DNA of 64,000 nt from Escherichia coli (GTDB lineage: Bacteria; Pseudomonadota; Gammaproteobacteria; Enterobacterales; Enterobacteriaceae). The stretch lies in the NCBI RefSeq assembly GCF_030013205.1, contig NZ_CP122648.1. One strand, given 5' to 3'. Each line of letters begins with the position of its first letter. The first letter of the stretch is position 1. The position numbers and the translations under genes were made by a program. Shown here piece by piece: positions 7,224-43,651 of the stretch. The notes below the pieces were generated by a model. It had not been told where the DNA came from, made no database searches, and saw only the letters and a program-made list of their open reading frames with translations.

Positions 7224-7393
7224 AATGGCTCACTCAAGCTTGCTCACGATTGATTCCAGTAACAAACCGTATTGTGTAATTATTTCTATAGCAGGTCGCT
7301 ATATAGGCTTGTATACATCGAATAATTTGAAAATCAAAGAGATAGGTAGATTTTCACTCGAAAGTAGTATTACGTGTAAGTGAGGAGTAATTA

Positions 7394-7407
7394 TTGTTCG
7401 GTATCAA
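7394..7407. promoter_or_regulatory. FNR-like box TTGTT-N4-ATCAA upstream of dmsA
   Basis: Sequence ttgttcggtatcaa, one mismatch to the TTGAT-N4-ATCAA consensus; dmsABC is known to be FNR-activated. Confidence 0.4.
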
Positions 7408-7419
7408 AGGGAGACAAAA

Positions 7420-7439
7420 AAAGCGCCCGCAGGCGCTTT
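7420..7439. repeat. 20-bp direct repeat aaagcgcccgcaggcgcttt, putative attL core of the P2-like prophage
   Basis: Identical 20-mer occurs again at 28470..28489; together they bracket all phage genes. Confidence 0.55.
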
Positions 7440-7522
7440 AACGTTTCTTGCTCCCCCTGATGATTTACTTATTTTTCAACGAATAAGCCAAAACAGGGGG
7501 AACAAATTAACACAAATTATAA

Positions 7523-8971: not shown

Positions 8972-9030
8972 ACAAACCAAAACAAACCATCACAAGGCGC
9001 GACAAGCGCACCAACGCAAGAGGATAACAA

Positions 9031-9552
9031 ATGCGGGACTTCATTGCCGATAAAGAGTTATCTGACCACCAACCACTTCAGGAAAGTGACGCACTCAGCG
9101 GATCCATTGATGCCGCCAACGACGACGAACACGAAGAAAACAAGAAAAAGCGTTCCTACAAAAAAGGAGCGACTTTACGGCTGGATGGTCCGATCGCCGG
9201 GCTTTGCTCTCTGGAAAAAGGCGCGGCATATATTGGGCTAACAAAATCTGCACTGCGCGTAGCCATTCATCGCGGTCAAATGCCGGGACACAAGACGCGC
9301 ACAAACCCGGAAGATGAAAACTCAGACGGAGTATGGTGGTTTAACGCCAAAGAGTGGGACGCACTGGCTGACGAGCTACCGGAACTTGAGCCACCAGAAT
9401 GGCACAACTGGAAAAGTTACTGGACGTATGACCGCCAGAAAAGAAAGTTCTTTCCAGCTAATAAAGAAGACTGCCAGACCATTAACGGTAAGCGAGTTTA
9501 TACAGGCAGAAGCTCAAAACTGAACCAACTCAGAAACAACAGAGGCAACTAA
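9031..9552 (+). CDS. first rightward early gene, possible Cox/Apl-like HTH regulator (unusually long)
   Basis: ATG with GAGGA RBS; HTH-like stretch IGLTKSALRVAIHRGQMPG; occupies the position of cox/apl. Confidence 0.35.
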   Translation: MRDFIADKELSDHQPLQESDALSGSIDAANDDEHEENKKKRSYKKGATLRLDGPIAGLCSLEKGAAYIGLTKSALRVAIHRGQMPGHKTRTNPEDENSDGVWWFNAKEWDALADELPELEPPEWHNWKSYWTYDRQKRKFFPANKEDCQTINGKRVYTGRSSKLNQLRNNRGN

Positions 9553-9556
9553 TCGT

Positions 9557-9979
9557 ATGAAAACAAACACGTCAGATTTCACAATAACTATTTCAAAAAA
9601 TGACCAAGCATTAATTGATAACCTGAAATACCTTGCGGAAAAACATAATAACGGACGAATTGCAATTAATTTACGACACATCACAGGAGTAACAATTGTA
9701 ACCAGTTACTGGCATCTATATCTAATCGCTAAATCAGTACTGGAAAACAAAGATTCTGTTGTCAATGGAAGAGATGTAGATACTCTTCCTGCACAAATCA
9801 AACCGATAGCCTATCAATTGCGTAATCGTTTTAAAAATGAAGGTGGGATTATATTTGACTTTCCCGCAGCTGTAGCCGTGAGCTTCTCTCGGGAGGATAT
9901 ACTTCACTCATTTCGTTTTGCTCTATCAGGTGACGAGACATTATGGCAGCTAGAAGATGCCGGGAGCAGCCCGGCATAA
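9557..9979 (+). CDS. hypothetical protein, AT-rich gene
   Basis: 140-aa ORF, visibly AT-rich relative to neighbours. Confidence 0.45.
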   Translation: MKTNTSDFTITISKNDQALIDNLKYLAEKHNNGRIAINLRHITGVTIVTSYWHLYLIAKSVLENKDSVVNGRDVDTLPAQIKPIAYQLRNRFKNEGGIIFDFPAAVAVSFSREDILHSFRFALSGDETLWQLEDAGSSPA

Positions 9980-9985
9980 ATCAAA

Positions 9986-10177
9986 TTAAAAATCAACCAG
10001 TTGTGTGACAGGTGGGTATTTACGCTGAATTTTGTCAGTTACTAACGCCAGTAATATATGAATCTCTGCGTTTAATGCGTCTTTATCACCCGTCGTTTTT
10101 ACCCTAGGAGGGTTAATGTTATCCAGAGCAGCACTAAGGTCACTCAACAAATTAACAACTTTTTTATCTTCTGACAT
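9986..10177 (-). CDS. hypothetical small protein, lone reverse-strand gene
   Basis: 63-aa ORF with GAGG RBS 5 nt upstream of its start; convergent with the 140-aa gene. Confidence 0.35.
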   Translation of the reverse strand: MSEDKKVVNLLSDLSAALDNINPPRVKTTGDKDALNAEIHILLALVTDKIQRKYPPVTQLVDF

Positions 10178-10312
10178 GAAAACCTCTAAACAATTTAATT
10201 AAACATAAGCCAGGACCTGAACCGGCCAGTCCAAGTCCTAGACACACAAAAAATACCACAAATCAATACAAGGTGACACGAGTACACCTTACCGAAGGTA
10301 CAGAGTTTTAAT

Positions 10313-10663
10313 ATGAAACTACAGCGCAATTCTTCACAGCCGCGCTTCCGCAACGGTGCGGAACGCCACGCTAACCGTTTCGCTACCAGTGCATCACGTA
10401 GCAACTCTCGCTACAGCCTGAGCGAAACACACGCAACGCCGGATGGCTACCCAGTAAAACAAATCGGCGAGCATACCTGGCTGATTGAGAAAGCTGGAAT
10501 TGTGGTCCACAAATGCCCACGCAATCCGTTTACCGGAAACCGCATTTTTGCATTGAGCTGCGGCGACAATCAGTTCGGGCAGGATTTCACATTATACGAA
10601 GCACTTCGCACGGTTGATCGTCTGCTTCGCGGGCAAAGTTTTATTAAACAGGCTGATTTATAA
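10313..10663 (+). CDS. hypothetical protein
   Basis: 116-aa ORF in rightward gene block. Confidence 0.45.
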   Translation: MKLQRNSSQPRFRNGAERHANRFATSASRSNSRYSLSETHATPDGYPVKQIGEHTWLIEKAGIVVHKCPRNPFTGNRIFALSCGDNQFGQDFTLYEALRTVDRLLRGQSFIKQADL

Positions 10664-10673
10664 CAGGTGCGTT

Positions 10674-10961
10674 ATGACCAAAGAGCATGCACAAGGTGTA
10701 TTTATCCGTTTTATTGATTTTCGCGGTGAAATGTTATTACGCGCATCCGCTATTGATGGAGTGGCTCCAGCGGGTAAAAACGGAGCCAACGAAGCCACTT
10801 ACGTTTATCTGAACAGCACGCGACTGCTTGTGGAACTTCCGTACCAGACCGTACGAGAAATCATTAGTGAAGCTGAAAAGGCACGCCAGGCTAATGGCGA
10901 TAAACCCTATATCGAAATTATTTGTATGGATTCAGAAACTGAAATTCAGAAAGCAGATTAA
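10674..10961 (+). CDS. hypothetical protein
   Basis: ATG at 10674 with AGGTG RBS, directly after the previous stop. Confidence 0.45.
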   Translation: MTKEHAQGVFIRFIDFRGEMLLRASAIDGVAPAGKNGANEATYVYLNSTRLLVELPYQTVREIISEAEKARQANGDKPYIEIICMDSETEIQKAD

Positions 10962-10972
10962 AGGGCGTTGCG

Positions 10973-11215
10973 ATGGGCAAAGAATATAAAACTCTCATTA
11001 ACAAAGCACTTGAGCGTTTTTATTTTCGCTTAAGTGCATCAGGCGCTCATGCTGAACGTGCAGCCCGTGACTCATTGACCAGGGCAATCCGGAGTCTGTA
11101 TGACGTGGCTTTTTACGCTGATGATCTGGATGCACTTAACGAACTTTCCGAGCTGATCTGTGCCGCAGAATGCGGGGAACATATTGAACCGTATAAGCTG
11201 GGGAATATCGCATGA
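10973..11215 (+). CDS. hypothetical protein
   Basis: 80-aa ORF, tight spacing in operon. Confidence 0.45.
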   Translation: MGKEYKTLINKALERFYFRLSASGAHAERAARDSLTRAIRSLYDVAFYADDLDALNELSELICAAECGEHIEPYKLGNIA

Positions 11216-11325
11216 GTATATTTATCTCGTGGCTTGTTCTGATTATTTCGGTGATCTGCGCTATTGGCATTATGCGAATTATTCATTCAGTGAAAAAGAT
11301 TGAGCGTTTTTTCTCTGACGAATAA
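11212..11325 (+). CDS. 37-aa hydrophobic peptide (MSIFISWLVLIISVICAIGIMRIIHSVKKIERFFSDE), not in ORF track
   Basis: ATG overlaps the upstream stop (ATGA); single predicted TM segment. Confidence 0.3.
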   Translation: MSIFISWLVLIISVICAIGIMRIIHSVKKIERFFSDE

Positions 11326-11418
11326 CAGCACAAATAAAACACCAGATTAAATAAGAAAACGTGAAAACCATCCGAATTAACGGAGGCATTCACACACGTA
11401 AATAATGGAGATACAAAA

Positions 11419-11829
11419 ATGAACGCAAAAGAAAAAGGCATTATAACTGCGCTAAAAAATATATCGGAGACCGCAAACAGAGCCATTCAGGATGCAACAA
11501 ATGCAGGAATGATTGGGCCTGCCACCACAGCCATGATGATAGCAAGAGTAACCGCCGAAGCAGCCGAAATTATCGAAAAACAGGATGCTGAACTAACGGT
11601 TCTCAGAACACAATCAGTCACCGAACTGGATTTGTCTAACACCGGACGCCTTATTTACACAATTGGCTCGGAGCCACAGCAATACACCATTATCGTCGGA
11701 TTACAGGATAAATACCTGATCACTCCTCACCCCATAAGGGAATCAGAAATTCTGACAAATCTCCGCCTGATAGAGCGCTCTCAAGTCGCATTCATTGATG
11801 ACGCACAGCGCACCGTATTTAACGCATAG
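11419..11829 (+). CDS. hypothetical protein
   Basis: 136-aa ORF. Confidence 0.45.
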   Translation: MNAKEKGIITALKNISETANRAIQDATNAGMIGPATTAMMIARVTAEAAEIIEKQDAELTVLRTQSVTELDLSNTGRLIYTIGSEPQQYTIIVGLQDKYLITPHPIRESEILTNLRLIERSQVAFIDDAQRTVFNA

Positions 11830-11853
11830 GGTTACTGGACAAAGGGGGGCGCA

Positions 11854-12057
11854 ATGGCAATTAAGCGTTTTTCCGTCATTCGTTTCACATCCAGAGGGCG
11901 TGAATACGAGGTTGACGAACGGCTGATTAAAACGCTCGACCGTCACCGTTCGCAACCTGACGCGCATCACATTTACCTCACTGACGACACTTACTTCTGC
12001 GCCACCAACGTGGTGCAGGTGAATCTTATCAGACAGGTACAGGAGTCACGCAGATGA
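11854..12057 (+). CDS. hypothetical protein
   Basis: 67-aa ORF, overlapping stop/start with the next gene. Confidence 0.4.
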   Translation: MAIKRFSVIRFTSRGREYEVDERLIKTLDRHRSQPDAHHIYLTDDTYFCATNVVQVNLIRQVQESRR

Positions 12058-12299
12058 CCATTCTGGACTACATCACAGCCAATCCGGGTTGTAGCGGTGG
12101 AGAAATCGCCGCCGCGCTGAATACCCCAACCACAGCCATTAATGCTGAGTTGCGCCGACTCTGGCGTGACGGCTTAGTCATCAGAGAAGAGCGCAAAACA
12201 GGCGGTCGGTTCTCTTACCAGGTAAACCCGATGCCGTTCGGGTGTGGCAACCCACTTACTCACATGTTTAACCAGCTACTGAAGGAAGCCAGAGCATGA
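12054..12299 (+). CDS. small winged-helix-like DNA-binding protein
   Basis: 81-aa ORF, ...GEIAAALNTPTTAINAELRRLWRDGLV... resembles a winged helix. Confidence 0.45.
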   Translation: MTILDYITANPGCSGGEIAAALNTPTTAINAELRRLWRDGLVIREERKTGGRFSYQVNPMPFGCGNPLTHMFNQLLKEARA

Positions 12300-12595
12300 G
12301 CACCATCAACCACCAGGAACTACGCGAACTGGCGACTGACCTGCAACGAATGGCAACGCATCAAAAATTACTGGCGTTTCGCGCAATGCTCTCGCCATCT
12401 GCCGTGTTGGCACTACTGGATGAGCTGGAGCACGCCAGAACCACAGCGCCAGCCATTCGCCTGACGCTCCATCATGAAATCGCTGATTTCTGTGCACCAC
12501 TGGGTTCACCTGGCGAACCGGAAACACCGGAAGCAATGCAGCGAGAGCTGCTGCAACGCATCGACAAGGTTTTTGATTTTTTCCTTAACCAGTAA
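12296..12595 (+). CDS. hypothetical protein
   Basis: 99-aa ORF. Confidence 0.45.
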   Translation: MSTINHQELRELATDLQRMATHQKLLAFRAMLSPSAVLALLDELEHARTTAPAIRLTLHHEIADFCAPLGSPGEPETPEAMQRELLQRIDKVFDFFLNQ

Positions 12596-12606
12596 GGGAT
12601 CGCAGC

Positions 12607-12810
12607 ATGAACAAAAAGACCTGGTTTCGCGCATACATGTGGGCGCTGGTATGCGTCCTCGTTTCTCTCATTCTGTATGCAGGACTCCTCCCCCGAATGA
12701 TTTCATCAGACAGCTCCTTCCTGGTATTGCTGGGCATTTTCATTGCCATGCTGTACCCGGCAGGCGTTGTTCGCCTTTTCAGTAAGTACATCAAGGAAAT
12801 CAAACAATGA
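12607..12810 (+). CDS. small two-TM membrane protein, partner of downstream SPFH protein
   Basis: 67 aa with two hydrophobic helices; stop overlaps the SPFH start. Confidence 0.5.
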   Translation: MNKKTWFRAYMWALVCVLVSLILYAGLLPRMISSDSSFLVLLGIFIAMLYPAGVVRLFSKYIKEIKQ

Positions 12811-13637
12811 AGAAATTCAAACTCTTTCAGATTATCCCTCTTTTTGCCGCCATCCTGCTGGTTGGTTGCGATCGTGTTGAGCCAGGTAATGTGGGCATCA
12901 AAGTCAACAAACTGGGCGACGACAAAGGCGTCGGTGAAGTGGTTGGTGTTGGCCGCTACTGGACTGGCTGGAATACCGAGGTTTACATCTTCCCGACCTT
13001 CAAACAAATGAAGACCTACGATGAGCCGTTCAGCTTCCAGATGAGTGACGGCACAACCATCGGCTATCACATCGGTGTGGCCTACAAGGTTGATCCATCC
13101 AAAGTTACTACAGTGTTTCAGACCTACCGCAAAGGCGTGGATGACATTACCGACACTGACCTGCGCCAGAAGATCGCCGATGCACTCAACCGACTGGCCA
13201 GCAAAATGACCACCGACAAATTTATCGACGGCGGGAAATCTGAACTACTGGATGCAGCTCTTAAAGACATTCAGGAGGAAATGACACCCATCGGTATTCA
13301 GGTAATGAGCCTCTCATATGTGGGTAAGCCGGAGTACCCGTCAACCGTTATCGACAGCATTAATGCCAAAGTCACGGCAAACCAGAAAACCCTGCAACGC
13401 GAACAGGAAGTCAAGCAACGTGAAGCAGAAGCCAACATGTTGCGCGCAGAAGCTGCCGGACAGGCTGATGCCATTCGCACAAAAGCCCAGGCTGAAGCCG
13501 ACGCCATTCGTTTACGCGGTGAAGCTCTGCGCCAGAATCCCGGCGTTATGGAGCTGGAAGCAATCAACAAATGGAACGGCACGCTGCCGCAATACATGAC
13601 CAGCAATACCGCTGTTCCGTTTGTTCCGGTGAAGTAA
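12807..13637 (+). CDS. SPFH/band-7 (prohibitin-like) lipoprotein
   Basis: Lipobox LLVGC after signal peptide; SPFH-like core and Ala/Glu-rich coiled-coil C-terminus. Confidence 0.75.
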   Translation: MKKFKLFQIIPLFAAILLVGCDRVEPGNVGIKVNKLGDDKGVGEVVGVGRYWTGWNTEVYIFPTFKQMKTYDEPFSFQMSDGTTIGYHIGVAYKVDPSKVTTVFQTYRKGVDDITDTDLRQKIADALNRLASKMTTDKFIDGGKSELLDAALKDIQEEMTPIGIQVMSLSYVGKPEYPSTVIDSINAKVTANQKTLQREQEVKQREAEANMLRAEAAGQADAIRTKAQAEADAIRLRGEALRQNPGVMELEAINKWNGTLPQYMTSNTAVPFVPVK

Positions 13638-13643
13638 TTAAAC

Positions 13644-13668
13644 CCGGCCAGTGAAAATCACTGGCCGG
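13644..13668 (+). terminator. 11-bp-stem hairpin after SPFH gene
   Basis: ccggccagtga-aaat-cactggccgg; a T-run follows about 12 nt later. Confidence 0.4.
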
Positions 13669-14004
13669 AGCAGTATCAGGATTTTTTAGTATGCCGTTCT
13701 CACAAAAAAACCGCTTGCCATGCCGCAATCAGTCAGGTTACATTTCCGCTGCACCTCATAAAACGGGTGCCGGGATTTCCACCCCGCTGACAACCAAAGC
13801 GCACAACCGCGCCAGCGGTTTTTTTGTGCGTACCGTATCGCCACGTCTTTTTCGCACACGAATTATGGTGGGGCGTATGGGGCCGACTTCGGTCGGGCCG
13901 GGTTCTTTGGTTGCCGGTTGTGGAAACCCTGTACGTCTCACCACCCCGAGTTTTCCACCTCTGGATGGTGAGTTTTCAAAACTTACAACCAAAGAGGCCA
14001 CACC

Positions 14005-14235
14005 ATGGCAAACCGCAAACAACAGCGCACATACGCTGCGCGTCGTCACATCCAGACTGAAATCAACCGCAGACTTTTCCGCGCATTCCGCGTCGCGCAA
14101 ATCATGCACATCAATATGCTGCATGAACGCAGTCACGCACTATCGAACAGCTATTCCGCCTCTGTTTTCAGCTATCTGGCGGATGATCTGCGCGAGCTTC
14201 AGCAGCTCATCCAGCAGCAAAACAAACTCCATTAA
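14005..14235 (+). CDS. hypothetical basic protein
   Basis: 76-aa ORF with AGAGG RBS. Confidence 0.4.
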   Translation: MANRKQQRTYAARRHIQTEINRRLFRAFRVAQIMHINMLHERSHALSNSYSASVFSYLADDLRELQQLIQQQNKLH

Positions 14236-14307
14236 TTCCTGTTCCGGGCCTTTCCTGCACCTTGCGGCGGGAGGCCTTCGCACATCTGTAACAAGAGGAG
14301 TGCCGCA

Positions 14308-14673
14308 ATGATTCTCGCCAACGACTTTCTTGAATACCTGCTCAACACAGAGCGTGATCTTGCCGTTCGCGTGCGTGACCGTTATGACATGTACCTGAAA
14401 TCCCTGCCTGTACCGCAGCTCGCTGACGGAAAGATTGTTATTGATGGCCGCTACATGATTGACAGCCACGAGGGAAATTACAGGCTTTACCGCATTGAAG
14501 GCGGCACCCCGTCCGTTATTGGCATTTACCAGCGCCCATCCTCTGCGATCGTCGATGTGATTGCAGACAGCATCCGCATCACACATCACTATGCCGACAC
14601 AGAAGACACCGTGCTGGAAATTCAGCGGCTGGCTACAGTCTGCCGCGACACCCTGAATGGCATGACGAAGTAA
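14308..14673 (+). CDS. hypothetical protein
   Basis: 121-aa ORF with AGAGGA RBS. Confidence 0.45.
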   Translation: MILANDFLEYLLNTERDLAVRVRDRYDMYLKSLPVPQLADGKIVIDGRYMIDSHEGNYRLYRIEGGTPSVIGIYQRPSSAIVDVIADSIRITHHYADTEDTVLEIQRLATVCRDTLNGMTK

Positions 14674-14679
14674 ATCACT

Positions 14680-14967
14680 ATGACAGCAGAGTACATCAGG
14701 GACTGGCAACAACCGCGCCACGCAGTGGGGCGTGAAGGAACGGGGATCCCTGCTCCTGAAGCGGTGGAAGGTGTCGCAACGTCACAGGCCGACATTATCG
14801 ACCGTTTTAATGCGCTGGAAACCCGCCATCAGCAGGACAGCCAGAAAATCACTTTACTGACCACAGAGCTGACAGCACTGAAGGAAAAACTGCGCACGCA
14901 GGACGGCGATCCGCAGAACCGGTTCACCGCAACGGGCGCAGCCTCCGATCAACTGGCTGACTTCTGA
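14680..14967 (+). CDS. hypothetical protein
   Basis: 95-aa ORF. Confidence 0.4.
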   Translation: MTAEYIRDWQQPRHAVGREGTGIPAPEAVEGVATSQADIIDRFNALETRHQQDSQKITLLTTELTALKEKLRTQDGDPQNRFTATGAASDQLADF

Positions 14968-14990
14968 TAAGACAAAGGAGCAAATTTTTT

Positions 14991-15254
14991 ATGAATCTGG
15001 TGATGTCAGATATTACCCGCAACAAGCTGGGTTGCTATATGGCGCAGCAGGCGTCGCTTAACAACATCCCGGTATCTGCACTGGTATCGCGATTTACCGT
15101 GGAACCCTCGGTGTCCGCCATTGCTGCCGCACTGCATGTGCACGGTGTGCAACGCGTGGAAATAATCGAACCCACACAGAATATGGCCATCAGCGACATA
15201 CAGGCGGCGCGCTGTGAGTCATTCACCATCAGCGAAGGTGGACGCAATGAGTAA
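14991..15254 (+). CDS. hypothetical protein
   Basis: 87-aa ORF with AAGGAG RBS; overlaps the gpI start by 8 nt. Confidence 0.45.
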   Translation: MNLVMSDITRNKLGCYMAQQASLNNIPVSALVSRFTVEPSVSAIAAALHVHGVQRVEIIEPTQNMAISDIQAARCESFTISEGGRNE

Positions 15255-15774
15255 TTCGCTGTTACCACCATCAGCCAGCAATTTCATGCGTTGTGCCGAA
15301 GCCGTCGGGACACGCATTACAGACATTCCGGTAGACCTCAACACGCTGTGGTCGCCGGATACCTGCCCGGTGCATCTGCTGCCTTATCTCGCCTGGGCAT
15401 TTTCCGTTGACCGCTGGGATCGCAACTGGCCGGAAGAGACAAAGCGACAGGTGATTCGTGATGCATGGCTGATACACCGACACAAGGGAACCATCAGCGC
15501 ACTGCGCCGGGCCATTGAGCCGCTGGGATATCTCATTCGTGTGTCTGAGTGGTGGGAGTTCGACGGCGAACCCGGAACATTCAAGGTTGATGTTGGCACG
15601 CTGGACAGTGGTGTGACCGAGGAAATGTATCTGGAAATGGAACGGCTGATTGCCGATGCCAAACCCGCAAGTCGCCACCTTATCGGCCTGAACATTATCC
15701 AGGACATTCCTGGCTATCTGTATACAGGCGGTGTGGTCTGTGATGGTGATGTTATTACTGTTTATCCCGGATAA
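15247..15774 (+). CDS. P2-like tail protein I
   Basis: ATG at 15247 (MSNSLLPPSAS...) with AGGTGG RBS; family motifs LWSPDTCP, LLPYLAWAFSVDRWD. Confidence 0.8.
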   Translation: MSNSLLPPSASNFMRCAEAVGTRITDIPVDLNTLWSPDTCPVHLLPYLAWAFSVDRWDRNWPEETKRQVIRDAWLIHRHKGTISALRRAIEPLGYLIRVSEWWEFDGEPGTFKVDVGTLDSGVTEEMYLEMERLIADAKPASRHLIGLNIIQDIPGYLYTGGVVCDGDVITVYPG

Positions 15775-15784
15775 GTGAGAAACA

Positions 15785-18442
15785 ATGAGCACGAAATTTA
15801 AAACCGTTATCACTACTGCCGGAGCCGCGAAGCTGGCAGCCGCCACTGTCCCCGGCGGGAAAAAAGTAACTCTGTCTGCAATGGCCGTGGGTGACGGTAA
15901 TGGCAAATTGCCGGTGCCGGATGCCGGTCAGACGAAACTGGTGCATGAGGTCTGGCGTCACGCTCTGAATAAAGTCAGCGTGGATAACAAGAATAAAAAC
16001 TATATCGTGGCTGAACTGGTTGTACCGCCAGAAGTGGGCGGCTTCTGGATGCGTGAGCTGGGTCTGTATGACGATGCCGGAACACTGATTGCGGTCGCTA
16101 ACATGGCGGAAAGCTATAAACCTGAACTCGCTGAAGGCTCCGGGCGCGCGCAGACCTGCCGCATGGTTATTATTGTCAGCAACGTGGCGTCCGTTGAGCT
16201 GAGTATTGATGCCAGCACAGTGATGGCGACGCAGGATTACGTCGATGACAAAATCGCAGAGCATGAGCAGTCCCGCCGCCATCCTGACGCCACGCTGACA
16301 GAAAAAGGTTTTACTCAGTTAAGTAGCGCAACAAACAGCACCAGTGAAGAGCTGGCGGCAACGCCAAAGGCAGTAAAAGCAGCCTATGACAATGCTGAAA
16401 AACGTATGCAGAAAGACCAGAACGGTGACGATATTCCAGATAAGGGCGCTTTTCTGGACAACGTTGGCGTTACCAGCCTGACGTTTATGAAAAACAATGG
16501 CGAAATGCCGCTTGATGCTGACTTGAATACATTTGGTCCCGTTAAGGCTTATCTTGGCATCTGGTCTAAAGCAACATCCACCAACGCAACACTGGAGAAA
16601 AATTTCCCGGAAGATAATGCTGTCGGTGTGCTTGAGGTTTTTGCAGCTGGCAATTTTGCAGGCACGCAACGTTTTATCACGAGAGACGGCAATGTATACA
16701 TGCGTAAACTCGCCAATAAGTGGAATGGCACTGATGGTCCGTGGGGCGTATGGCGTCACACTCAATCAGCTACCCGCCCTTTGAGTACGACTATAGACCT
16801 GAATACGCTTGGAGCCGCTGAGCATCTTGGTTTATGGCGTAACAGTAGCTCGGCTATAGCTTCATATGAACGCAATTATCCAGAGGAAGGCGGCTTTGCT
16901 CAGGGGACGCTTGAGATCCTCGAAGGCGGGAATTATGGAAGAACGCAACGTTATACCACTCGTCGTGGGAATATGTACGTTCGCTGCCTTGCGGCAAGCT
17001 GGGATGCATCAAATCCGCAGTGGGAACCGTGGTTAAGAGTCGGTCATCAGTCAGAGAGCCGTTATTACGAAGGTGATTTGAATGTTCTAACCGACCCCGG
17101 TATTTACAGTGTTACAGGAAAGGCGACAAACGGTCCGATGCTGGACGCTGCTGGGGCGACATTGCTTGGGATACTGGAAGTAATCAGGCGTTTTGATGGT
17201 GTATCTGTCTGGCAGCGTTACACAACCACAGGGAAATCAGAAACCACACAGGGGCGCACTTTTGAGCGCGTCTACGCCGGGAGCACATGGACCGAATGGC
17301 GAGAAGTGTATAACTCCTTTTCGTTGCCCCTGAATATGGGGATCGGTGGCGCAGTGGCAAAACTCACCAGCCTGGACTGGCAGACCTACGATTTTGTGCC
17401 GGGCAGTCTGATAACCGTTCGGCTTGATAACATGACCAATATTCCCGACGGTATGGACTGGGGCGTCATTGATGGCAACCTGATAAACATCGCTGTTGGT
17501 CCGAGTGATGATTCCGGTACGGGGCGCTCAATGCATGTATGGCGCAGCACTGTAAGTAAAGCGAATTACCGCTTTTTTATGGTTCGCATTTCAGGAAATC
17601 CGGGAAGCCGCACGATTACGACAAGACGTGTGCCAATTATCGACGAAGCTCAGACATGGGCGGCGAAACAGACATTCAGCGGTGGTCTTTCTGGCGAACT
17701 ATCCGGCAATGCTGCTACAGCAACAAAGCTGAAAACGGCAAGGACAATTAACGGCGTAAAATTTGACGGCTCGGCAAATATTGAAGCGTTTCCGCCAGGT
17801 GTTCCGCTGCCGTGGCCATCAGATACTGTGCCGTCTGGTTACGCCCTGATGCAGGGACAGACTTTTGATAAATCTGCATACCCGAAACTTGCAGTCGCTT
17901 ATCCGTCAGGCGTGATCCCGGATATGCGTGGCTGGACAATCAAGGGCAAACCCGCCAGTGGTCGGGCCGTATTGTCTCTGGAACAGGACGGCATTAAATC
18001 GCACACCCACAGTGCCAGCGCATCCAGTACGGATTTGGGTACGAAAACCACATCGTCGTTTGATTACGGTACTAAATCAACGAATAACACAGGTGCACAT
18101 ACCCACAATGTATCTGGTACTGCAAATAGTGCTGGCGCACATACTCATACCGTTCCATTAAGGAGACCAAACAGTGGCGGTATGAATTTCGACTGGCTGG
18201 ATGGTGCATCAAGTGGCACGGTGGTGGGGAATGGAACTGTGCCTTCTTCTGGCGCACATACCCACTCAGTATCAGGTACCGCTACAAGTGCTGGGGCACA
18301 TGCACACACTGTTGGTATTGGCGCTCATACGCACTCTGTTGCGATTGGTTCACATGGACACACCATCACCGTTAACGCTGCTGGTAACGCGGAAAACACC
18401 GTTAAAAACATCGCATTTAATTATATTGTGAGGCTTGCATAA
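15785..18442 (+). CDS. P2-like tail fiber protein H
   Basis: 885-aa ORF; conserved N-terminus [21 protein letters not shown]...; C-terminal His-rich repeats (GAHTHxV). Confidence 0.85.
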
Positions 18443-19059
18443 TGGCATTCAGAATGAGTGAACAATCACGTACTGTAAAAATTTATAACCTGCTGGCCGG
18501 AACTAATGAGTTTATTGGTGAAGGTGACGCATATATTCCACCTCATACAGGGCTGCCAGCCAATTCTACAGATATCGCCCCACCGGAAATTCCTGCTGGC
18601 TTTGTGGCAGTTTTTAACAGTGAAAATGAATCGTGGAATATTGTTGAAGACCATCGTGGTAAAACGGTCTATGACGTGGCATCGGGGGACGCGTTGTTTA
18701 TTTCTGAACCCGGACCGCTACCAGAGAATGTCACCTGGTTGTCGCCAGCAGGGGAGTATCAGAAGTGGGACGGCGTATCCTGGGTGAAGGATGAGGAAGC
18801 AGAAAAACTGTTTCGGATACGGGAAGCGGAAGAGAAAAAGGCAAGGTTGATCCAGGAAGCAACAGATAACATCGCAATTCTGCAGGATGCAGTTAATCTT
18901 GAAATAGCAACAAACGAGGAAAATTCACAACTGGATTCCTGGAGAAAATACAGAGTATTAGTGAGTAGAATTGACACCAGTACAGCTCCGGATATCGTAT
19001 GGCCAGAGCTGATGAATCAGGGTTATGTGCGGGAGGACGAGCAGATAACTTCAGACTGA
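18442..19059 (+). CDS. tail fiber assembly protein (gpG-like)
   Basis: 205-aa ORF immediately after H with overlapping stop/start. Confidence 0.7.
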
Positions 19060-31249: not shown

Positions 31250-31864
31250 CTACTTACGTTGATCATCTACCGTTACGCCTTGCGGCGGGGTGAAGGTAAA
31301 TTTCGCTGCATCCACAGTCCCATTTTGCTGGGATTTCAGCTGATAACTGCTGCGCTGATCGTCCTGCTCCACCGCGCTAAACTGATGGATTGTGCCATCA
31401 CGTCCCACGTTAATGGTGAACTGCTTCAGATTGCCATTGCTGGCTTTCGGCGTCAGGACAAAGTCATCGCCATTCTGTTTGATATTGTACTGCTGCCAGT
31501 CGCTGGACTGGTTGCGGGCAATCAGCATAAACGGCGTATTACCGGTGGCATCTTTCAGCCAGGTTGCCGTAGCTTGCTCAACGAACGGGTTATAGAACCA
31601 CAGTGTTTTACCGTCAGAAACCAGAATGCTTTCATCAGGTTGAGTCATATGCCAGTTGAATAAGTTTGGACGTTTCACCCACAGATCGCCCTGGCCTTCC
31701 TGCACCGCCGCGCCGCTACCGTCAGTCACTTTTTGTGTGAAGCTGGCGTGGAAGCTGCTGACTTTATCCAGGCGGCTTTTAAGATCGCTTGCGGCATCAG
31801 CCCAAACGCTGCTTGCTACTAAGCTTGAGAGTAATGCACAGGTGATGGCAATTTTTTTCATCAT
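31250..31864 (-). CDS. lolA: outer-membrane lipoprotein carrier protein LolA
   Basis: 204-aa ORF with signal peptide; synteny. Confidence 0.93.
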
Positions 31865-32019: not shown

Positions 32020-35000
32020 TTAGTCAAACGGCGGTGGGGCCAGCACTTCACGATTACCGTTGTGCCCCTGTTCGCTGACAATCCCCTGCGCTTCCATCTG
32101 TTCGATAATACGCGCTGCACGGTTATAACCAATGCGGAACTGACGCTGTACGCCAGAAATTGATGCTTTGCGTTTTTCAGTGACAAACTGCACCGCCTGA
32201 TCGAACAACGGATCCAGCTCTTCAGCGCCATCGAAACCGCCCGCGCCACCTTCGCTTTCGCTGTCGGAGGTGATGCCATCAACATACTGTGGGCGACCAC
32301 GCGCTTTCCAGTCCTGCACCACGGCATGAACTTCCTGATCGCGAACAAAAGCACCATGGACACGTACCGGCAACGTGGAGTTCGGCCCAGAGTAGAGCAT
32401 ATCCCCCATACCCAGCAGTGATTCCGCACCAGCCTGATCAAGAATGGTACGTGAGTCAATCTTACTGGATACGGTAAAGGCGATACGGGTCGGAATATTC
32501 GCTTTAATCAGACCAGTAATAACATCAACCGATGGACGCTGAGTTGCCAGTACGAGGTGGATACCCGCGGCACGGGCTTTTTGCGCCAGACGTGCTATCA
32601 GCTCTTCCACTTTTTTACCTACGGTCATCATCAGGTCGGCAAATTCGTCCACCAAAACCACAATGTATGGTTCTTTTTTCAGCACCGGATGCTGGACGTC
32701 CATACTGTCACCCGGCTTCCAGTACGGGTCTGGAATCGGACGCATCATGCGATCGGCTTCAGCAATTTTTTCGTTATAACCCGCCAGATTACGCACACCT
32801 AGGGCGGACATCAGCTTATAACGACGTTCCATTTCATTTACGCACCAGCGCAAAGCGTTGGCAGCATCTTTCATGTCGGTAACGACTTCCGTTAACAGAT
32901 GCGGAATGCCTTCATAAACCGAAAGCTCCAGCATTTTCGGGTCGATCATGATGAAACGCACATCTTCTGGCTGTGCTTTATAAAGCATGCTCAGGATCAT
33001 CGCGTTCACACCGACAGACTTACCGGAACCGGTAGTCCCCGCAACCAACAAGTGCGGCATTTTCGCCAGATCGGCAACCACCGGCTCACCGGCGATATCT
33101 TTACCCAGTACCACGGTTAATGGCGACGGATTATCGCGGAATTTGGCGTTATCCAAAACTTCGCGCAGATATACGGTTTGTCGTTTTTTATTCGGTAACT
33201 CCAGACCTACATAGGGTTTGCCAGGAATAACTTCAACGACACGCACCGCCACCGTCGAAAGTGAACGGGCAAGGTCACGTGACAAGTTAGAAATACGCGC
33301 CGCTTTTACGCCCGGTGCCAGGTTCAATTCAAAGCGAGTGATAACCGGCCCCGGAGAATAATTGACGACATCGGCTTTAATACGGAAATCAGCCAGACGC
33401 GCTTCCACCAGACGCGCCATTTGTTCAAGCGCAAAGGTATCTACCGGCTCCACTTCGCTCGGCGGAGGTGTCAACAAATCCAAAGAAGGCAGCGGCGTCG
33501 TCGGTTTATGCAACGGACGGCTGTCGCCATTACGCATCAACAGCGGATGAAGCAGGGTATCCTGCGGCTGTGGCGCAACTGGCTGTTGTGGCTGCTGATA
33601 CTGCGGCTGCGGTGCAACCGGTTGTTGTGGCTGCTGATACTGCTGCTGCGGCGCAACCGGTTGTTGTGGCTGCTGATACTGCGGCTGCGGTGCAACCGGT
33701 TGTTGCGGCTGCTGATATTGTGGCTGCGGCGCAACCTGCTGTTGTGGCTGCTGATACTGCTGCTGCGGTGCAACCGGTTGTTGCGGCTGCTGTACAGGTT
33801 CAACAATTGGCGTAAACAACGGTTCGTGTGGACCATCATCCAGCAACGCTTTCATTGGCGAAAATTCAAAATCATCCAGCGAGAACGGATTCGCCCCAGC
33901 CGGTTGTTCGCCGGAATAACGTTGTTGTTGAGTTTGCGCAAACTGACGAGCCAGTTCAGCCTCTGCCGCAGCATCTGCATCTTCTGCGTTTACGGGCACA
34001 TCATGTTGATACTGTTCGCCATAGCGTTGCTGCTGTGTCTGGGCGAACTGACGTGCCAGTTCATCCTGCTGCATCGCATCGATTTCATCATCGTTGTACT
34101 GATCGCCAGAATCGTACTGATTGCGCTGGGCTTCACGGGCTTTTTCTTCTGCCGCACGCTGTGAGGGCAGCTTAATACCGTAAGACGCCAATTCACGACG
34201 AGTTGGCACGCGGATACGTTTCGGTCGTGGCAACTGCGGGCCAATCCCCTCTTTGACCTGCGGACGCGGTCCACCGCTATTTGCCAGACTGAAGACTGGC
34301 GCGGCAACGGTTGCGGCAGCCCCCGTCGCCAGTGTCGCTTTTTTCACGCCAGATGCCAGCGGAGAAACAGCGGCAGCGGCTTCTACTGGAGGTACTGCTG
34401 CAACAGAAGGTGCTTTCAGCGAAGATTTGATCGGTTCTGGTTCTTTAACCGGTTCAGGAATCGGTTGATACCAGGCCGCAAGTTGTTCACGTTCACGGGC
34501 ACGCTTCTCTTCCACTTCTTCAAAATAGTAAAGCGGCGGACGCGCGGGTTTTGTCTCTTCTACAACGGGCTCAGGCTCCACAACAGGGTGCTGTTCAACG
34601 GGTTGCGGCTGTTGGTACAACGGCTCCTGAGCGGCTGGCTGCTGATAAGTTTGCTCAGTCTGGTATGTAGACTGTGGAGCAAAAGTGGATTGCTGCTCTT
34701 CGGCTTGCCAGGCGTTACCTGCCGCCGTTTGTTCTGGCGCAGGGGCGTAATACGGCTGTTGCGCAGACTGTTCCGCCGCAGTTGCATAATACGGCTGCTG
34801 AACAGGTTGTTCCGCCGCAGGAGCGTAGTGAGGTTGTTGCACAGGTTGTTCCGCTGCTGGCGCATAATACGGCGGCTGTGGCTGTACAGGTTGTTGCAGC
34901 GGCTCATTATATTGCACTGCAGGCTGCGCATATTGTGGCTGCTGTGGGTAACCTTCCGGTGCCGGAGCAATCACCGGCTCTCCCGTTTGTGGACCCGGTA

Positions 35001-36087
35001 CAGGCTGCCAGGCTACTGTAGGTTGCGAAGGTGGAACATCAACAGAGGCAACAGGCGGCGTCTGAGTCACAGGTTCAACCGGCGCAGCCCAGCTTTGTGT
35101 CGCCGTGGTAGCAGCAGCTGCTACAGCAACAGGTTCGGTAATTGGCGCACCATTTAATAATGGATCGTATTCGTCATATTCTGGCTGCGTTGCACGATTG
35201 CCCGAAAAGAGGACGTCGTCAGGGTCGGCAGCCACACCGCGTGCAGTGTAGGTAATCTCTTCGTCATCATCCATCCGCTTACCGGAGAACAACGCAGCGT
35301 CTGTTTGCCGCCCCATCGGATTAATGAATTTTTCCGCCAACCGTTTACGACGCGCTAACGCGCCGCGAAGAATACGGGCACGGCGTGATTCATGCTGTTT
35401 GCCGTGATTTTCATCTTCATACTCTTCGTCATCTTCATACTCATCTTCATCGACCCAGGTATCATCGCGACGGGTACGATTACTGGCGAAGGTGAGAATG
35501 TTTAAAATCCAGCCGCCGAGTTTTTCAGCAATGGTCACCCATGACCAACCGGTGAACAGCGTCAGACCCGCAGCCCAAACGCAGAGCAGCGCAATAGTTC
35601 CCCCGCTACTGTGTAGCAGTGGTTGTAGCGTAGTGCTTAGTAAGCTGCCAATGACGCCACCGGAGGCAAAATACCAGATATCGTCAGCGTTGATTGCCGC
35701 CAGACCACAGGAGGTAAGGATGAGCGCCAAAACGCCAATGATGCGTAGCGAAACGGCAAAATAATCAATGTATTCGTCGCTGGACTGATGACGCCAGGCA
35801 AACCAACAACCGCCGACAATAATGACGGGAATGGTGTAAGCCATCACGCCAAAAATAAAGAACAGCGTATCTGCCAGCCACGCACCGGGCATCCCACCTA
35901 AATTATGGATAGGTTCATGCCAGGCCGTTTGCGACCAGCTGGGGTCCGAAGGGTTAAAGCTTAGTAAGGCAGCCATCAACCAGACGGCAAACAGGACAAT
36001 AAGGATCAGCAACGCCTCCAGAAGGCGGCGGCCGCTACTTAACTTTGTCAATGTGACTTCTTTGTCTTCAGTGTATTCCTGGCTCAA
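32020..36087 (-). CDS. ftsK: DNA translocase FtsK
   Basis: 1355-aa ORF: N-terminal TM domain, long Pro/Gln-rich linker, C-terminal motor with Walker A. Confidence 0.95.
33575..33800. repeat. about 5.5 tandem copies of a 39-bp unit inside the ftsK linker (encodes [13 protein letters not shown] repeats)
   Basis: Repeated ctgctgatactgcggctgcggtgcaaccggttgttgtgg visible on the plus strand. Confidence 0.7.
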
Positions 36088-36221: not shown

Positions 36222-36716
36222 TTAGCGCGTCTTAATAACCAGACGATTACTCTGCTTGACTTCTTCCATAACAACGTATGTCCGTGTGTCATTGACGCCA
36301 GGCAGACGCAGCAGGGTTTCCCCCAGCAACTTACGGTAAGCTGACATATCCGGCACGCGTGTTTTCAACAGGTAGTCGAAATCACCGGATACTAAATGAC
36401 ACTCCTGAATTTCTTCAAGTTTTTGTACAGCGGTATTGAATTGTTCAAACACATCCGGTGCGCCACGATTCAGAGTAATCTCAACGAATACCAGAAGTGA
36501 TGCATCCAGATAATGAGGGTTCAGCAGCGCCGTATAGCCCTGAATAAACCCTTGTCTTTCCAGCCGACGCACACGCTCAAGGCACGGCGTTGGGGAAAGT
36601 CCCACACGTTTAGAAAGCTCGACGTTAGAAATACGCCCATCCTTTTGCAACTCATTAAGAATGTTACGATCGATACGGTCGAGATCTTTGCCTGGGCGCT
36701 TCTTGCTATCTACCAT
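36222..36716 (-). CDS. lrp: leucine-responsive regulatory protein
   Basis: ATG at 36716 (MVDSKKRPGKDLDRIDRNIL...), 164 aa, AsnC family. Confidence 0.95.
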   Translation of the reverse strand: MVDSKKRPGKDLDRIDRNILNELQKDGRISNVELSKRVGLSPTPCLERVRRLERQGFIQGYTALLNPHYLDASLLVFVEITLNRGAPDVFEQFNTAVQKLEEIQECHLVSGDFDYLLKTRVPDMSAYRKLLGETLLRLPGVNDTRTYVVMEEVKQSNRLVIKTR

Positions 36717-43338: not shown

Positions 43339-43426
43339 GGTGAGGTGTCCGAGTGGCTGAAGGAGCACGCCTGGAAAGTGTGTATACGGCAACGTATCGG
43401 GGGTTCGAATCCCCCCCTCACCGCCA
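43339..43426 (+). tRNA. serW: tRNA-Ser (anticodon GGA)
   Basis: 88-nt GGTGAGGTGTCCGAGTGG...TTCGAATCCCCCCCTCACCGCCA with long variable arm and GGA in the anticodon loop. Confidence 0.93.
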
Positions 43427-43472
43427 TATTCAAAGAAGAGCTCGTACGAAAGTAGGGGCTTTTTTTTCGCAT
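43408..43472. repeat. direct repeat copy 1 (tRNA-Ser 3' end plus terminator)
   Basis: aatccccccctcaccgccatattcaaagaagagctcgtacgaaagtaggggcttttttttcgcat. Confidence 0.7.
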
Positions 43473-43587
43473 ATTGCACACACCGGGGGGATGAGAAGCC
43501 CCGACCGGGGTTCGACAACTGGCGCAGCCAGTTGGACAGACCACGAACACAGTGAGTGGGCTGCCCGCAGGGCGAGCGAAGCGAGTC

Positions 43588-43651
43588 AATCCCCCCCTCA
43601 CCGCCATATTTAAAGAAAAACTCGTACGAAAGTACGAGTTTTTTTTCGCAT
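43588..43651. repeat. direct repeat copy 2 (duplicated tRNA-Ser 3' end plus terminator)
   Basis: aatccccccctcaccgccatatttaaagaaaaactcgtacgaaagtacgagttttttttcgcat, near-identical to copy 1. Confidence 0.7.

Follow-up and report, generated by a model that had tools for sequence, protein, structure and literature searches.

The window, a stretch of 64,000 nucleotides from Escherichia coli (NZ_CP122648.1), contains the gene ftsK in the context lrp-ftsK-lolA that is usual for E. coli, as judged from synteny and from BLAST against the K-12 genes. The protein begins with the N-terminal septum-targeting domain of four transmembrane segments (PF13491, FtsK_4TM, aa 20-191, E=5e-42) and ends with the C-terminal alpha (PF17854, FtsK_alpha), beta (PF01580, FtsK_SpoIIIE, aa 974-1187, with the P-loop) and gamma (PF09397, FtsK_gamma, aa 1290-1350) domains, all three far over the Pfam gathering score, and from this follows that it is a DNA translocase of the long-linker E. 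coli type. Between the 4TM and alpha domains lie 674 residues (aa 192-865), in which no Pfam domain was found. This linker contains two tandem arrays with a period of 39 bp, here called A and B, and their positions are given in Table 1 together with those of the neighboring features.

Table 1. Features in and around ftsK, in window coordinates.
Feature	Position	Strand	Description	Basis
lolA	31250-31861		downstream of ftsK; 99% identical to K-12	BLAST vs K-12 genes
ftsK CDS	32020..36087	(-)	1355 aa, TTG start	ORF list
FtsK alpha domain	33190..33492	(-)	aa 866-966, starts 23 residues past array A	Pfam
Spurious antisense ORF	33421..34164	(+)	247 aa, periodic translation (17-letter motif) over array A	ORF list
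CVN001 reverse primer site	33461..33480	(+)	2 mismatches	primer mapping
ms07 reverse primer site	33466-33485		3 mismatches; amplicon 587 bp = allele 6	PMC8215070
Spurious antisense ORF	33468..33815	(+)	115 aa, periodic translation (13-letter motif)	ORF list
Spurious off-frame same-strand ORF	33537..33839	(-)	100 aa, periodic translation (13-letter motif)	ORF list
Array A	33559..33792	(-)	six in-frame 39-bp units, aa 766-843	TRF, codon register, shuffle test, primers, population lengths
CVN001 forward primer site	33887..33905	(-)	0 mismatches	primer from PMC8143711 Table 1
ms07 forward primer site	34033..34052	(-)	0 mismatches	primers PMC8215070
ms06 reverse primer site	34610-34629		0 mismatches; amplicon 379 bp = allele 4	PMC8215070
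Array B	34738..34893	(-)	four in-frame 39-bp units of a second 13-residue type, aa 399-450	TRF, alignment gap, primers, population lengths
ms06 forward primer site	34969..34988	(-)	1 mismatch	primers PMC8215070
lrp	36222-36716		upstream of ftsK; 99% identical to K-12	BLAST vs K-12 genes

Array A is the final segment of the linker and borders immediately on the motor domain: 2IUS, the crystallised C-terminal construct from E. coli, aligns to aa 844-1355, and aa 844 is the first residue past the array. TRF reports 33562-33792 with period 39, 5.9 copies, 88% matches, no indels and a score of 364, while in codon register there are six complete units, each of which encodes ten residues followed by (P/Q)QY, except that the final unit ends in D. 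The composition is 50% Q and 27% P. At the DNA level the units are 82-97% identical to each other (mean 89%) and all six are distinct (types a-f), and in the peptides the substitutions are confined to three of the 13 unit positions. When the array is compared with itself at a lag of 39 bases, the match is 0.88, while 2000 shuffles of the bases gave no more than 0.40 and 2000 shuffles of the codons no more than 0.61; since the observed value exceeds that of every shuffle of either kind, the periodicity is far above chance. The tandem 39-bp repeats that a preliminary description had placed in the FtsK linker are thus confirmed. That description had put the array at 33575-33800, which oversteps the array by 8 bp at one end and misses 16 bp of it at the other. 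It had also counted about 5.5 units; its peptide motif corresponds to the true unit read from another starting residue, and its word "near-perfect" suits the peptides but overstates the similarity of the DNA.

The linker of FtsK has been described as unstructured, PQ-rich and different in length between species (PMC5357621; PMC3870252). In accordance with this, AlphaFold2 predicts coil for aa 723-847 with pLDDT 33-40, to be compared with 55-84 for the alpha domain, which, with an alignment of 18 sequences, is weak evidence of disorder, and no solved structure over the region of array A was found. Low complexity, lack of a domain match and predicted coil are together the marks of an intrinsically disordered PQ-rich linker.

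Array B sits 1 kb upstream of array A, and is reported by TRF at 34729-34878 with period 39, 3.7 copies and 73% matches. A common origin of the two arrays was considered in view of the shared 39-bp period; apart from this period, their units have, when judged by eye, only a QPV...Y pattern in common.

How much the two arrays vary was estimated from evenly spaced samples of 5,426 complete E. coli genomes (59 for array A and 60 for array B, in a collection that is skewed to clinical lineages). Each array length was obtained as the span of the record minus 600, from BLAST queries that consisted of the flanks only, with the array deleted. A direct BLAST of array plus flanks was abandoned: the alignments break in the repeat and pieces that overlap on the query remain unjoined, and coverage figures such as 2406/5426 are therefore unusable as allele counts. 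For array A, lengths of 39, 195, 222, 225, 234, 249, 273, 312 and 351 bp occur, that is one to nine whole units together with a few values off the unit. The two commonest states are seven units (21/59) and six units (20/59), and in two of the 59 genomes a single unit remains; in the one of these that was examined, ftsK is annotated as intact. For array B, two, three and four units (78, 117 and 156 bp) occur in 18, 19 and 23 of the 60 genomes, so that four units is the commonest state. The preliminary description had proposed that units be counted across E. coli ftsK genes and had expected their number to vary between strains; in the sampled genomes it does so in both arrays, and is far from identical in array A (39-351 bp).

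The alleles of 249, 225 and 222 bp do not correspond to changes by whole units. Two of them contain 15-bp partial units (QQPQY) or internal deletions, and the 12-bp difference of the 222-bp value must lie in the flanks, since array A itself has six units in that strain. Array A of strain Ec1117 contains an exact tandem duplication of two units (78 bp, in the order a-E-a-E), while in PapRG-04-4 the lone unit is chimeric, made up of the first unit and the end of the last one. Units differ from each other for the most part by synonymous changes: codon positions 3, 2 and 1 have 11, 5 and 3 polymorphic columns, respectively, and 35 DNA unit types give only 13 peptide types, with the non-synonymous changes largely between P and Q. 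This skew implies that selection acts on the peptide or on its composition, and array A is thus no free filler.

The reading that we favor, and consider very probably correct, is that ftsK, an essential gene, contains in array A a coding minisatellite that varies in frame and is tolerated in length, that this array coincides with typing loci already in use, and that the length difference from K-12 belongs to array B. According to this reading, each 39-bp unit corresponds to one Pro/Gln-rich module of 13 residues in the unstructured linker, which in turn tethers the N-terminal membrane domain, anchored at the septum, to the hexameric DNA pump at the C-terminus. As suggested by the structure of the alleles, whole modules would be added or removed by slippage during replication or by unequal recombination of the units, and gain or loss of a module keeps the reading frame, since 39 is divisible by three. 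From this would follow that E. coli lineages come to differ in unit number, since whole units are exchanged without a break of frame, and the same process acting on array B would account for the 26 extra residues in relation to K-12. The length changes are probably tolerated and are largely stable within lineages, and for this reason both arrays serve as markers in multiple-locus VNTR analysis (MLVA). From the composition, the structure prediction and the literature we infer that array A may act as a flexible spacer of tolerated length.

Consider instead the case where the units of 13 residues are selected for binding or spacing, with a divisome partner or the reach of the motor in mind, so that array A is a functional multivalent module and the unit number tunes the activity of FtsK rather than being nearly neutral. 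The predominance of synonymous variation and of P-Q exchanges described above fits this case, and so does the conservation of the motif in Salmonella and in a close relative (P0014), the position of the array between conserved anchors (EPLFTP on one side and a 13-residue sequence on the other), and the reported contacts of parts of the linker with FtsQ, L, I and Z (Dubarry 2010, summarised in PMC5357621). The synonymous skew could, however, stem from selection on composition or disorder alone, and the existence of natural isolates with a single unit speaks against tuning by unit number. Furthermore, the corresponding slot is aperiodic and PQ-rich, or unrelated, in Klebsiella, Cronobacter and Pectobacterium, and the 13-residue motif was absent from their FtsK proteins in a homologue search whose hits were for the most part incomplete proteins with sparse taxonomy. 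When an 84-bp linker-repeat indel was swapped between S. Enteritidis strains, no phenotype was seen in the one assay used (PMC6137255). We therefore regard a multivalent module as unlikely. Equally doubtful is the more specific proposal that the number of PQ units determines how far the FtsK motor reaches or how it is coupled to the divisome, with lineage alleles (one to nine units in A, two to four in B) that tune chromosome clearance in relation to septation; if this were true, the alleles at arrays A and B would time the one event against the other.

The difference from K-12 has its origin elsewhere in the linker than in array A. FtsK is 1355 aa here and 1329 aa in K-12 MG1655 (3990 bp, likewise with a TTG start), exactly as the preliminary description had stated, and it had ascribed the difference to an expansion of array A specific to this strain. 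The lengths suit such an account, in that 26 residues are 2 x 13 and would correspond to a gain of two units, and array A is indeed polymorphic within E. coli. Yet the protein alignment shows six units of array A in both strains, with four substitutions, and one single gap of 26 aa at aa 416-441 (34765-34842), which falls within array B, where the unit number is four here and two in K-12. Nor is the present combination specific to the strain: the six-unit and four-unit alleles are both common in the samples, and the unrelated strain B19429, with an ftsK gene that is 98.1% identical, has the same 6+4 units and the same 1355 aa. K-12 has the shortest common allele of array B, so that an expansion here and a contraction in K-12 are both possible. 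An expansion of array A particular to this strain is therefore very unlikely as the cause of the longer protein. The total length of FtsK carries no information about which of the arrays has changed, since 1329 aa results from the 6+2 units of K-12 as well as from the 5+3 units of strain 09-02E.

It is extremely unlikely that the unit number here is an artefact of assembly, brought about by collapse or expansion of the repeat. Partial fragments are numerous among the FtsK entries of the databases, and short-read assemblies may therefore be broken at these repeats. Against this, ftsK with 300-bp flanks is 100% identical to that of the complete genome NZ_CP080235 (O139:H1, W13-16), a region of 601 bp around the array, or its flanks, is 100% identical in K_EC180 and CFSAN018748, and 18 records are at least 99% identical. 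Array A, with 234 bp, fits inside one read on most platforms, and each of its six units can be placed uniquely by its DNA type.

Coding tandem repeats are a classic substrate for phase variation, and long ORFs overlap array A in other frames, so that the repeats might be seen as a contingency locus that switches FtsK or an overlapping gene by frameshifts, but this has a vanishingly small likelihood: the 39-bp unit preserves the frame, all 119 of the array lengths measured (A and B together) are divisible by 3, ftsK is annotated as intact in each of 12 other E. coli genomes fetched (1290-1381 aa), and the locus is stable within lineages, with ST131 monomorphic and three independent swine isolates 100% identical over the array region or its flanks. 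A frame shift or a switch of expression through changes in repeat number was thus not seen in these data. Array A lacks stop codons in five of its six frames, and the overlapping ORFs, which have periodic translations of low complexity, are therefore artefacts, as had been said of the antisense ORFs in the preliminary description. An RNA element and genuine overlapping genes were considered and rejected on the basis of these translations and of an Rfam search in which no family was found within ftsK.

Taken as a coding minisatellite, array A is a textbook case and has little weight as a discovery; it has been in use as a typing marker in E. coli, Shigella and Salmonella since about 2003-2008. 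That there are two independent 39-bp arrays in ftsK means that the length of the protein is no guide to which one has changed, and in annotation pipelines periodic spurious ORFs are to be expected over both. The isolates with a single unit of array A show that most of the segment is dispensable for viability, and such natural deletions are useful to studies of the linker.

In relation to known systems, array A is part of the PQ-rich unstructured linker of about 650 residues (FtsKL) between FtsKN and FtsKC, as reportedly defined by Bigot 2004 and Dubarry 2010. The classical boundary of FtsKC at K-12 residue 818 corresponds to aa 844 here, immediately past the array. In the FtsKL literature that was read, the linker is treated in bulk, and the 13-residue units and their number are given no role.

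The variability of array A was already known, and neither this array nor array B is new. Array A is the VNTR locus CVN001, which is said to belong to the generic E. coli scheme (GECM-7/GECM-10) of Lindstedt et al. 2007, and also the locus ms07, which together with ms06 is reportedly part of the Orsay Shigella/E. coli scheme of Gorge et al. 2008; array B is ms06. The primers of CVN001 have one match each here, and no mismatches at either site in K-12. The amplicon (33461-33905) is 445 bp, and (445-250)/39 gives n = 5.00, that is allele 5. Biologically, locus and array do not differ, and the unit is 39 bp in both, but the allele number is the number of 13-residue units minus one, because one unit sits in the 250-bp offset: in the one-unit strain the amplicon is exactly 250 bp. 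The relation amplicon = 250 + 39n gave integer n from 0 to 8 in 10 of 13 genes tested and a non-integer value in three. In CVN001 numbering, the sampled spectrum for array A (allele 5 34%, 6 36%, 7 14%, 8 5%; 59 genomes) resembles the published one (5 40%, 6 40%, 7 13%, 8 5%; PMC5217547 Table 3), and ST131 has allele 6 both in this analysis and in PMC5217547. The primers of ms07 and ms06 map uniquely and bracket arrays A and B, again with no difference between locus and array. Their predicted amplicons both lie within the published size ranges (392-821 bp for ms07 and 301-379 bp for ms06, with a repeat size of 39 bp for both; PMC8215070), and the published ms06 alleles 2, 3 and 4 (301-379 bp) are the three states of array B. 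The mismatches at the reverse site of ms07 could weaken amplification in this lineage.

In the E. coli MLVA papers searched, the gene of CVN001 is unnamed, a search for ftsK and MLVA gave Salmonella papers only, and a literature search for ftsK, VNTR and "39 bp" returned nothing; since these searches gave no pairing of ftsK with E. coli MLVA, the link between gene and typing locus was made here by primer mapping. In Salmonella, the ftsK VNTR called STTR7 or SENTR2 is described as a "variable PQ repeat region" with a unit of 39 bp and 9.3 copies (PMC2430564; PMC8627665). The Salmonella proteins have the 13-residue motif in the slot of array A, between EPLFTP and a downstream 10-residue anchor, and at the protein level repeats of this kind occur between the same anchors in S. 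Typhi P0028 and S. arizonae P0010. STTR7/SENTR2 differs in belonging to another genus and in having more copies in S. Enteritidis (9.3), but its position and motif suggest that it is the Salmonella counterpart of array A.

The FtsK linker in the window carries two tandem arrays of 39-bp units, and the one that makes this protein longer than its K-12 counterpart is the upstream array B, which is absent from the preliminary description. That description placed about 5.5 near-perfect units at 33575-33800, in the array here called A. Tandem repeats are confirmed there by Tandem Repeats Finder (TRF), by the codon register and by shuffling, but the units number six and the boundaries differ (Table). 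Near-perfect holds for the peptides, which are nearly identical, and not for the DNA, where the six units, all distinct in sequence, share 82-97% identity. Each unit consists of ten residues followed by (P/Q)QY, with D in place of Y in the final unit; Gln makes up 50% of the array and Pro 27%. Shifted by 39 bases, the array matches itself with an identity of 0.88, against maxima of 0.40 among 2000 base shuffles and 0.61 among 2000 codon shuffles; Gln/Pro codon composition therefore does not account for the periodicity.

Features of the window (nucleotide positions, or FtsK residues where marked aa)
Feature	Position	Strand	Remarks
ftsK	32020-36087	minus	1355 aa, TTG start (ORF list)
lrp	36222-36716		upstream of ftsK
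lolA	31250-31861		downstream of ftsK
FtsK_4TM	aa 20-191		Pfam
FtsK_alpha	aa 866-966		Pfam
FtsK_SpoIIIE	aa 974-1187		Pfam
FtsK_gamma	aa 1290-1350		Pfam
Array A, codon register	33559-33792	minus	six complete 13-residue units, aa 766-843
Array A, TRF	33562-33792		period 39, 5.9 copies, 88% matches, no indels, score 364
Array B, codon register	34738-34893	minus	aa 399-450; locus ms06
Array B, TRF	34729-34878		period 39, 3.7 copies, 73% matches
Acidic short repeat	35411-35451	minus	18 bp (6 aa), TRF
Duplicated linker motif	~33913-34065	minus	aa 675-725
Spurious ORF	33421-34164	plus	periodic low-complexity translation
Spurious ORF	33468-33815	plus	periodic low-complexity translation
Spurious ORF	33537-33839	minus, off-frame	periodic low-complexity translation
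CVN001 primer site	33887-33905		0 mismatches
CVN001 primer site	33461-33480		2 mismatches
Reverse-primer region	33461-33485	plus	mismatches: CVN001 2, ms07 3
P2-like prophage	9000-19000		Cox-family protein, GPO scaffold, replication endonuclease, tail fibre genes
C4 antisense RNA	13861-13948		Rfam, in prophage
isrK	13751-13825		Rfam, in prophage
STnc130 sRNA	7314-7448		Rfam, gathering level
tRNA	43339-43423		Rfam, gathering level
RtT element	43471-43606		adjoins tRNA; Rfam 47 bits, threshold 45

No Pfam domain was found in the 674 residues between FtsK_4TM and FtsK_alpha, which constitute the linker. The final part of the linker is encoded by array A: 2IUS, a crystallised C-terminal construct from E. 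coli, begins to align at aa 844, immediately after the array. AlphaFold2 (18-sequence alignment) predicts coil for aa 723-847 with pLDDT 33-40, compared with 55-84 for the alpha domain. According to reviews (PMC5357621; PMC3870252), the linker is unstructured and PQ-rich, spans about 650 aa in E. coli and varies from species to species; mutations in it are reported to cause filamentation, and parts of it to make contact with FtsQ, L, I and Z. FtsK has two further repeated elements. An acidic short tandem repeat encodes a stretch just past the membrane domain, and a motif present twice, about 36 aa apart, is conserved in FtsK fragments of other Enterobacteriaceae and, in contrast to the PQ arrays, predicted helical (pLDDT ~70); it could be a conserved functional linker element.

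The lengths in the preliminary description, 1355 aa here and 1329 aa in K-12, are both right: ftsK of K-12 MG1655 has 3990 bp and also a TTG start. The description was also right that a repeat difference underlies the excess, but it named the wrong array. Array A has six units in both strains, which align unit for unit with four substitutions, whereas the only gap between the two proteins, 26 aa at window residues 416-441, falls within array B, where the window has four units and K-12 has two. The excess is this two-unit difference.

When the arrays are used directly as BLAST queries, the alignments fragment inside the repeat. Therefore, synthetic queries of 300 bp left flank plus 300 bp right flank were used, and array length was taken as the joined-hit span minus 600, in genomes drawn at regular intervals from the ranked list of the 5,426 complete E. 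coli genomes. For array A (n = 59) the lengths in bp were 39 (2 genomes), 195 (1), 222 (1), 225 (1), 234 (20; window and K-12), 249 (2), 273 (21), 312 (8) and 351 (3), and for array B (n = 60) 78 (18; K-12), 117 (19) and 156 (23; window); all are divisible by three. Twelve genomes were fetched for direct inspection, and all carry an ftsK annotated as intact (1290-1381 aa), with from one (PapRG-04-4) to nine (Ec1117) units in array A and, in some alleles, 5-aa QQPQY partial units. Unit number thus varies among strains, as had been proposed, but the window alleles are common and not strain-specific; strain B19429, whose gene is just 98.1% identical to the window's, has the same six units in A and four in B (6+4) and 1355 aa. 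Strain 09-02E has 1329 aa like K-12, but through 5+3 units, so that total FtsK length cannot tell which array has changed.

That the repeat number in the window is an assembly artefact is argued against by the complete genome of O139:H1 W13-16, which is base-identical over ftsK and 300-bp flanks, and by further swine isolates with 100% identity in the array region or in the sequence flanking it. Many FtsK entries in the database (hits to aa 693-1012) are annotated partial, e.g., protein entry P0094 with 480 member sequences, which suggests frequent breakage of short-read assemblies within these repeats.

The 39-bp units are most likely modules of a flexible tether, and their number probably changes through slippage or unequal recombination between repeats. 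Such events are supported by Ec1117, in which two units are exactly duplicated (a-E-a-E), and by the single unit of PapRG-04-4, a chimera of first and last units. In-frame changes in unit number are tolerated: one-unit alleles occur in nature (2/59) and an S. Enteritidis allele swap with an 84-bp linker-repeat indel had no phenotype in the single assay tried (PMC6137255). The one-unit isolates, from a baboon (PapRG-04-4; genome record L002, NZ_CP049201, 606-4478; FtsK intact, 1290 aa) and a pig (HCP4S3_I4; record H142, known solely as a 39-bp length), amount to a natural near-deletion of the segment. The 35 distinct DNA unit types encode just 13 peptide types, 11 polymorphic unit columns fall at third, 5 at second and 3 at first codon positions, and most replacements between units exchange P and Q; purifying selection therefore acts on the peptide or, at the least, on what it is composed of. 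This gives a small probability that unit number tunes FtsK function.

Five of the six frames of array A, and likewise of array B, lack stop codons, which explains the overlapping ORFs. These had been called antisense artefacts; artefacts they are, but one of the three lies on the sense strand. No Rfam family overlaps ftsK. Elsewhere in the window, the 10-kb prophage is fully matched at 100% in only one of the 5,426 E. coli genomes, swine strain ETEC4079 (NZ_CP122643).

Both arrays are already known as E. coli repeat-typing loci, A as CVN001/ms07 and B as ms06. The CVN001 primers of the generic E. coli MLVA scheme (PMC8143711) map uniquely and give 445 bp, i.e., (445-250)/39 = 5. When 13 genes are amplified in silico, the window and K-12 have allele 5, O157:H7 and ST131 have allele 6, and the product of the one-unit strain is exactly as long as the 250-bp offset. 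The sampled spectrum of array A, expressed as CVN001 alleles (5: 34%, 6: 36%, 7: 14%, 8: 5%), resembles that of a Swedish clinical collection (40%, 40%, 13% and 5%), in which ST131 is monomorphic at 6 (PMC5217547). With the Orsay primers (PMC8215070), ms07 brackets array A and gives 587 bp, within the published 392-821 bp (allele 6), and ms06 brackets array B at 379 bp (allele 4); the three published ms06 alleles (2, 3 and 4, 301-379 bp) are the three array B states measured here. The CVN001 reverse primer matches K-12 perfectly, and its mismatches and those of ms07 in the window lineage could reduce amplification efficiency in O139:H1-type swine strains. Outside E. coli, the slot of array A is flanked by conserved anchors (...EPLFTP and ...HPLLMRNG...) in all relatives compared, and is PQ-rich but aperiodic in Klebsiella and Cronobacter and unrelated in sequence in Pectobacterium. 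FtsK fragments of S. Typhi and S. arizonae have the 13-residue E. coli motif in the same slot, and the Salmonella ftsK 39-bp VNTR, STTR7/SENTR2 (9.3 copies, PMC2430564), called the 'variable PQ repeat region' (PMC8627665), is the Salmonella counterpart of this already known feature.
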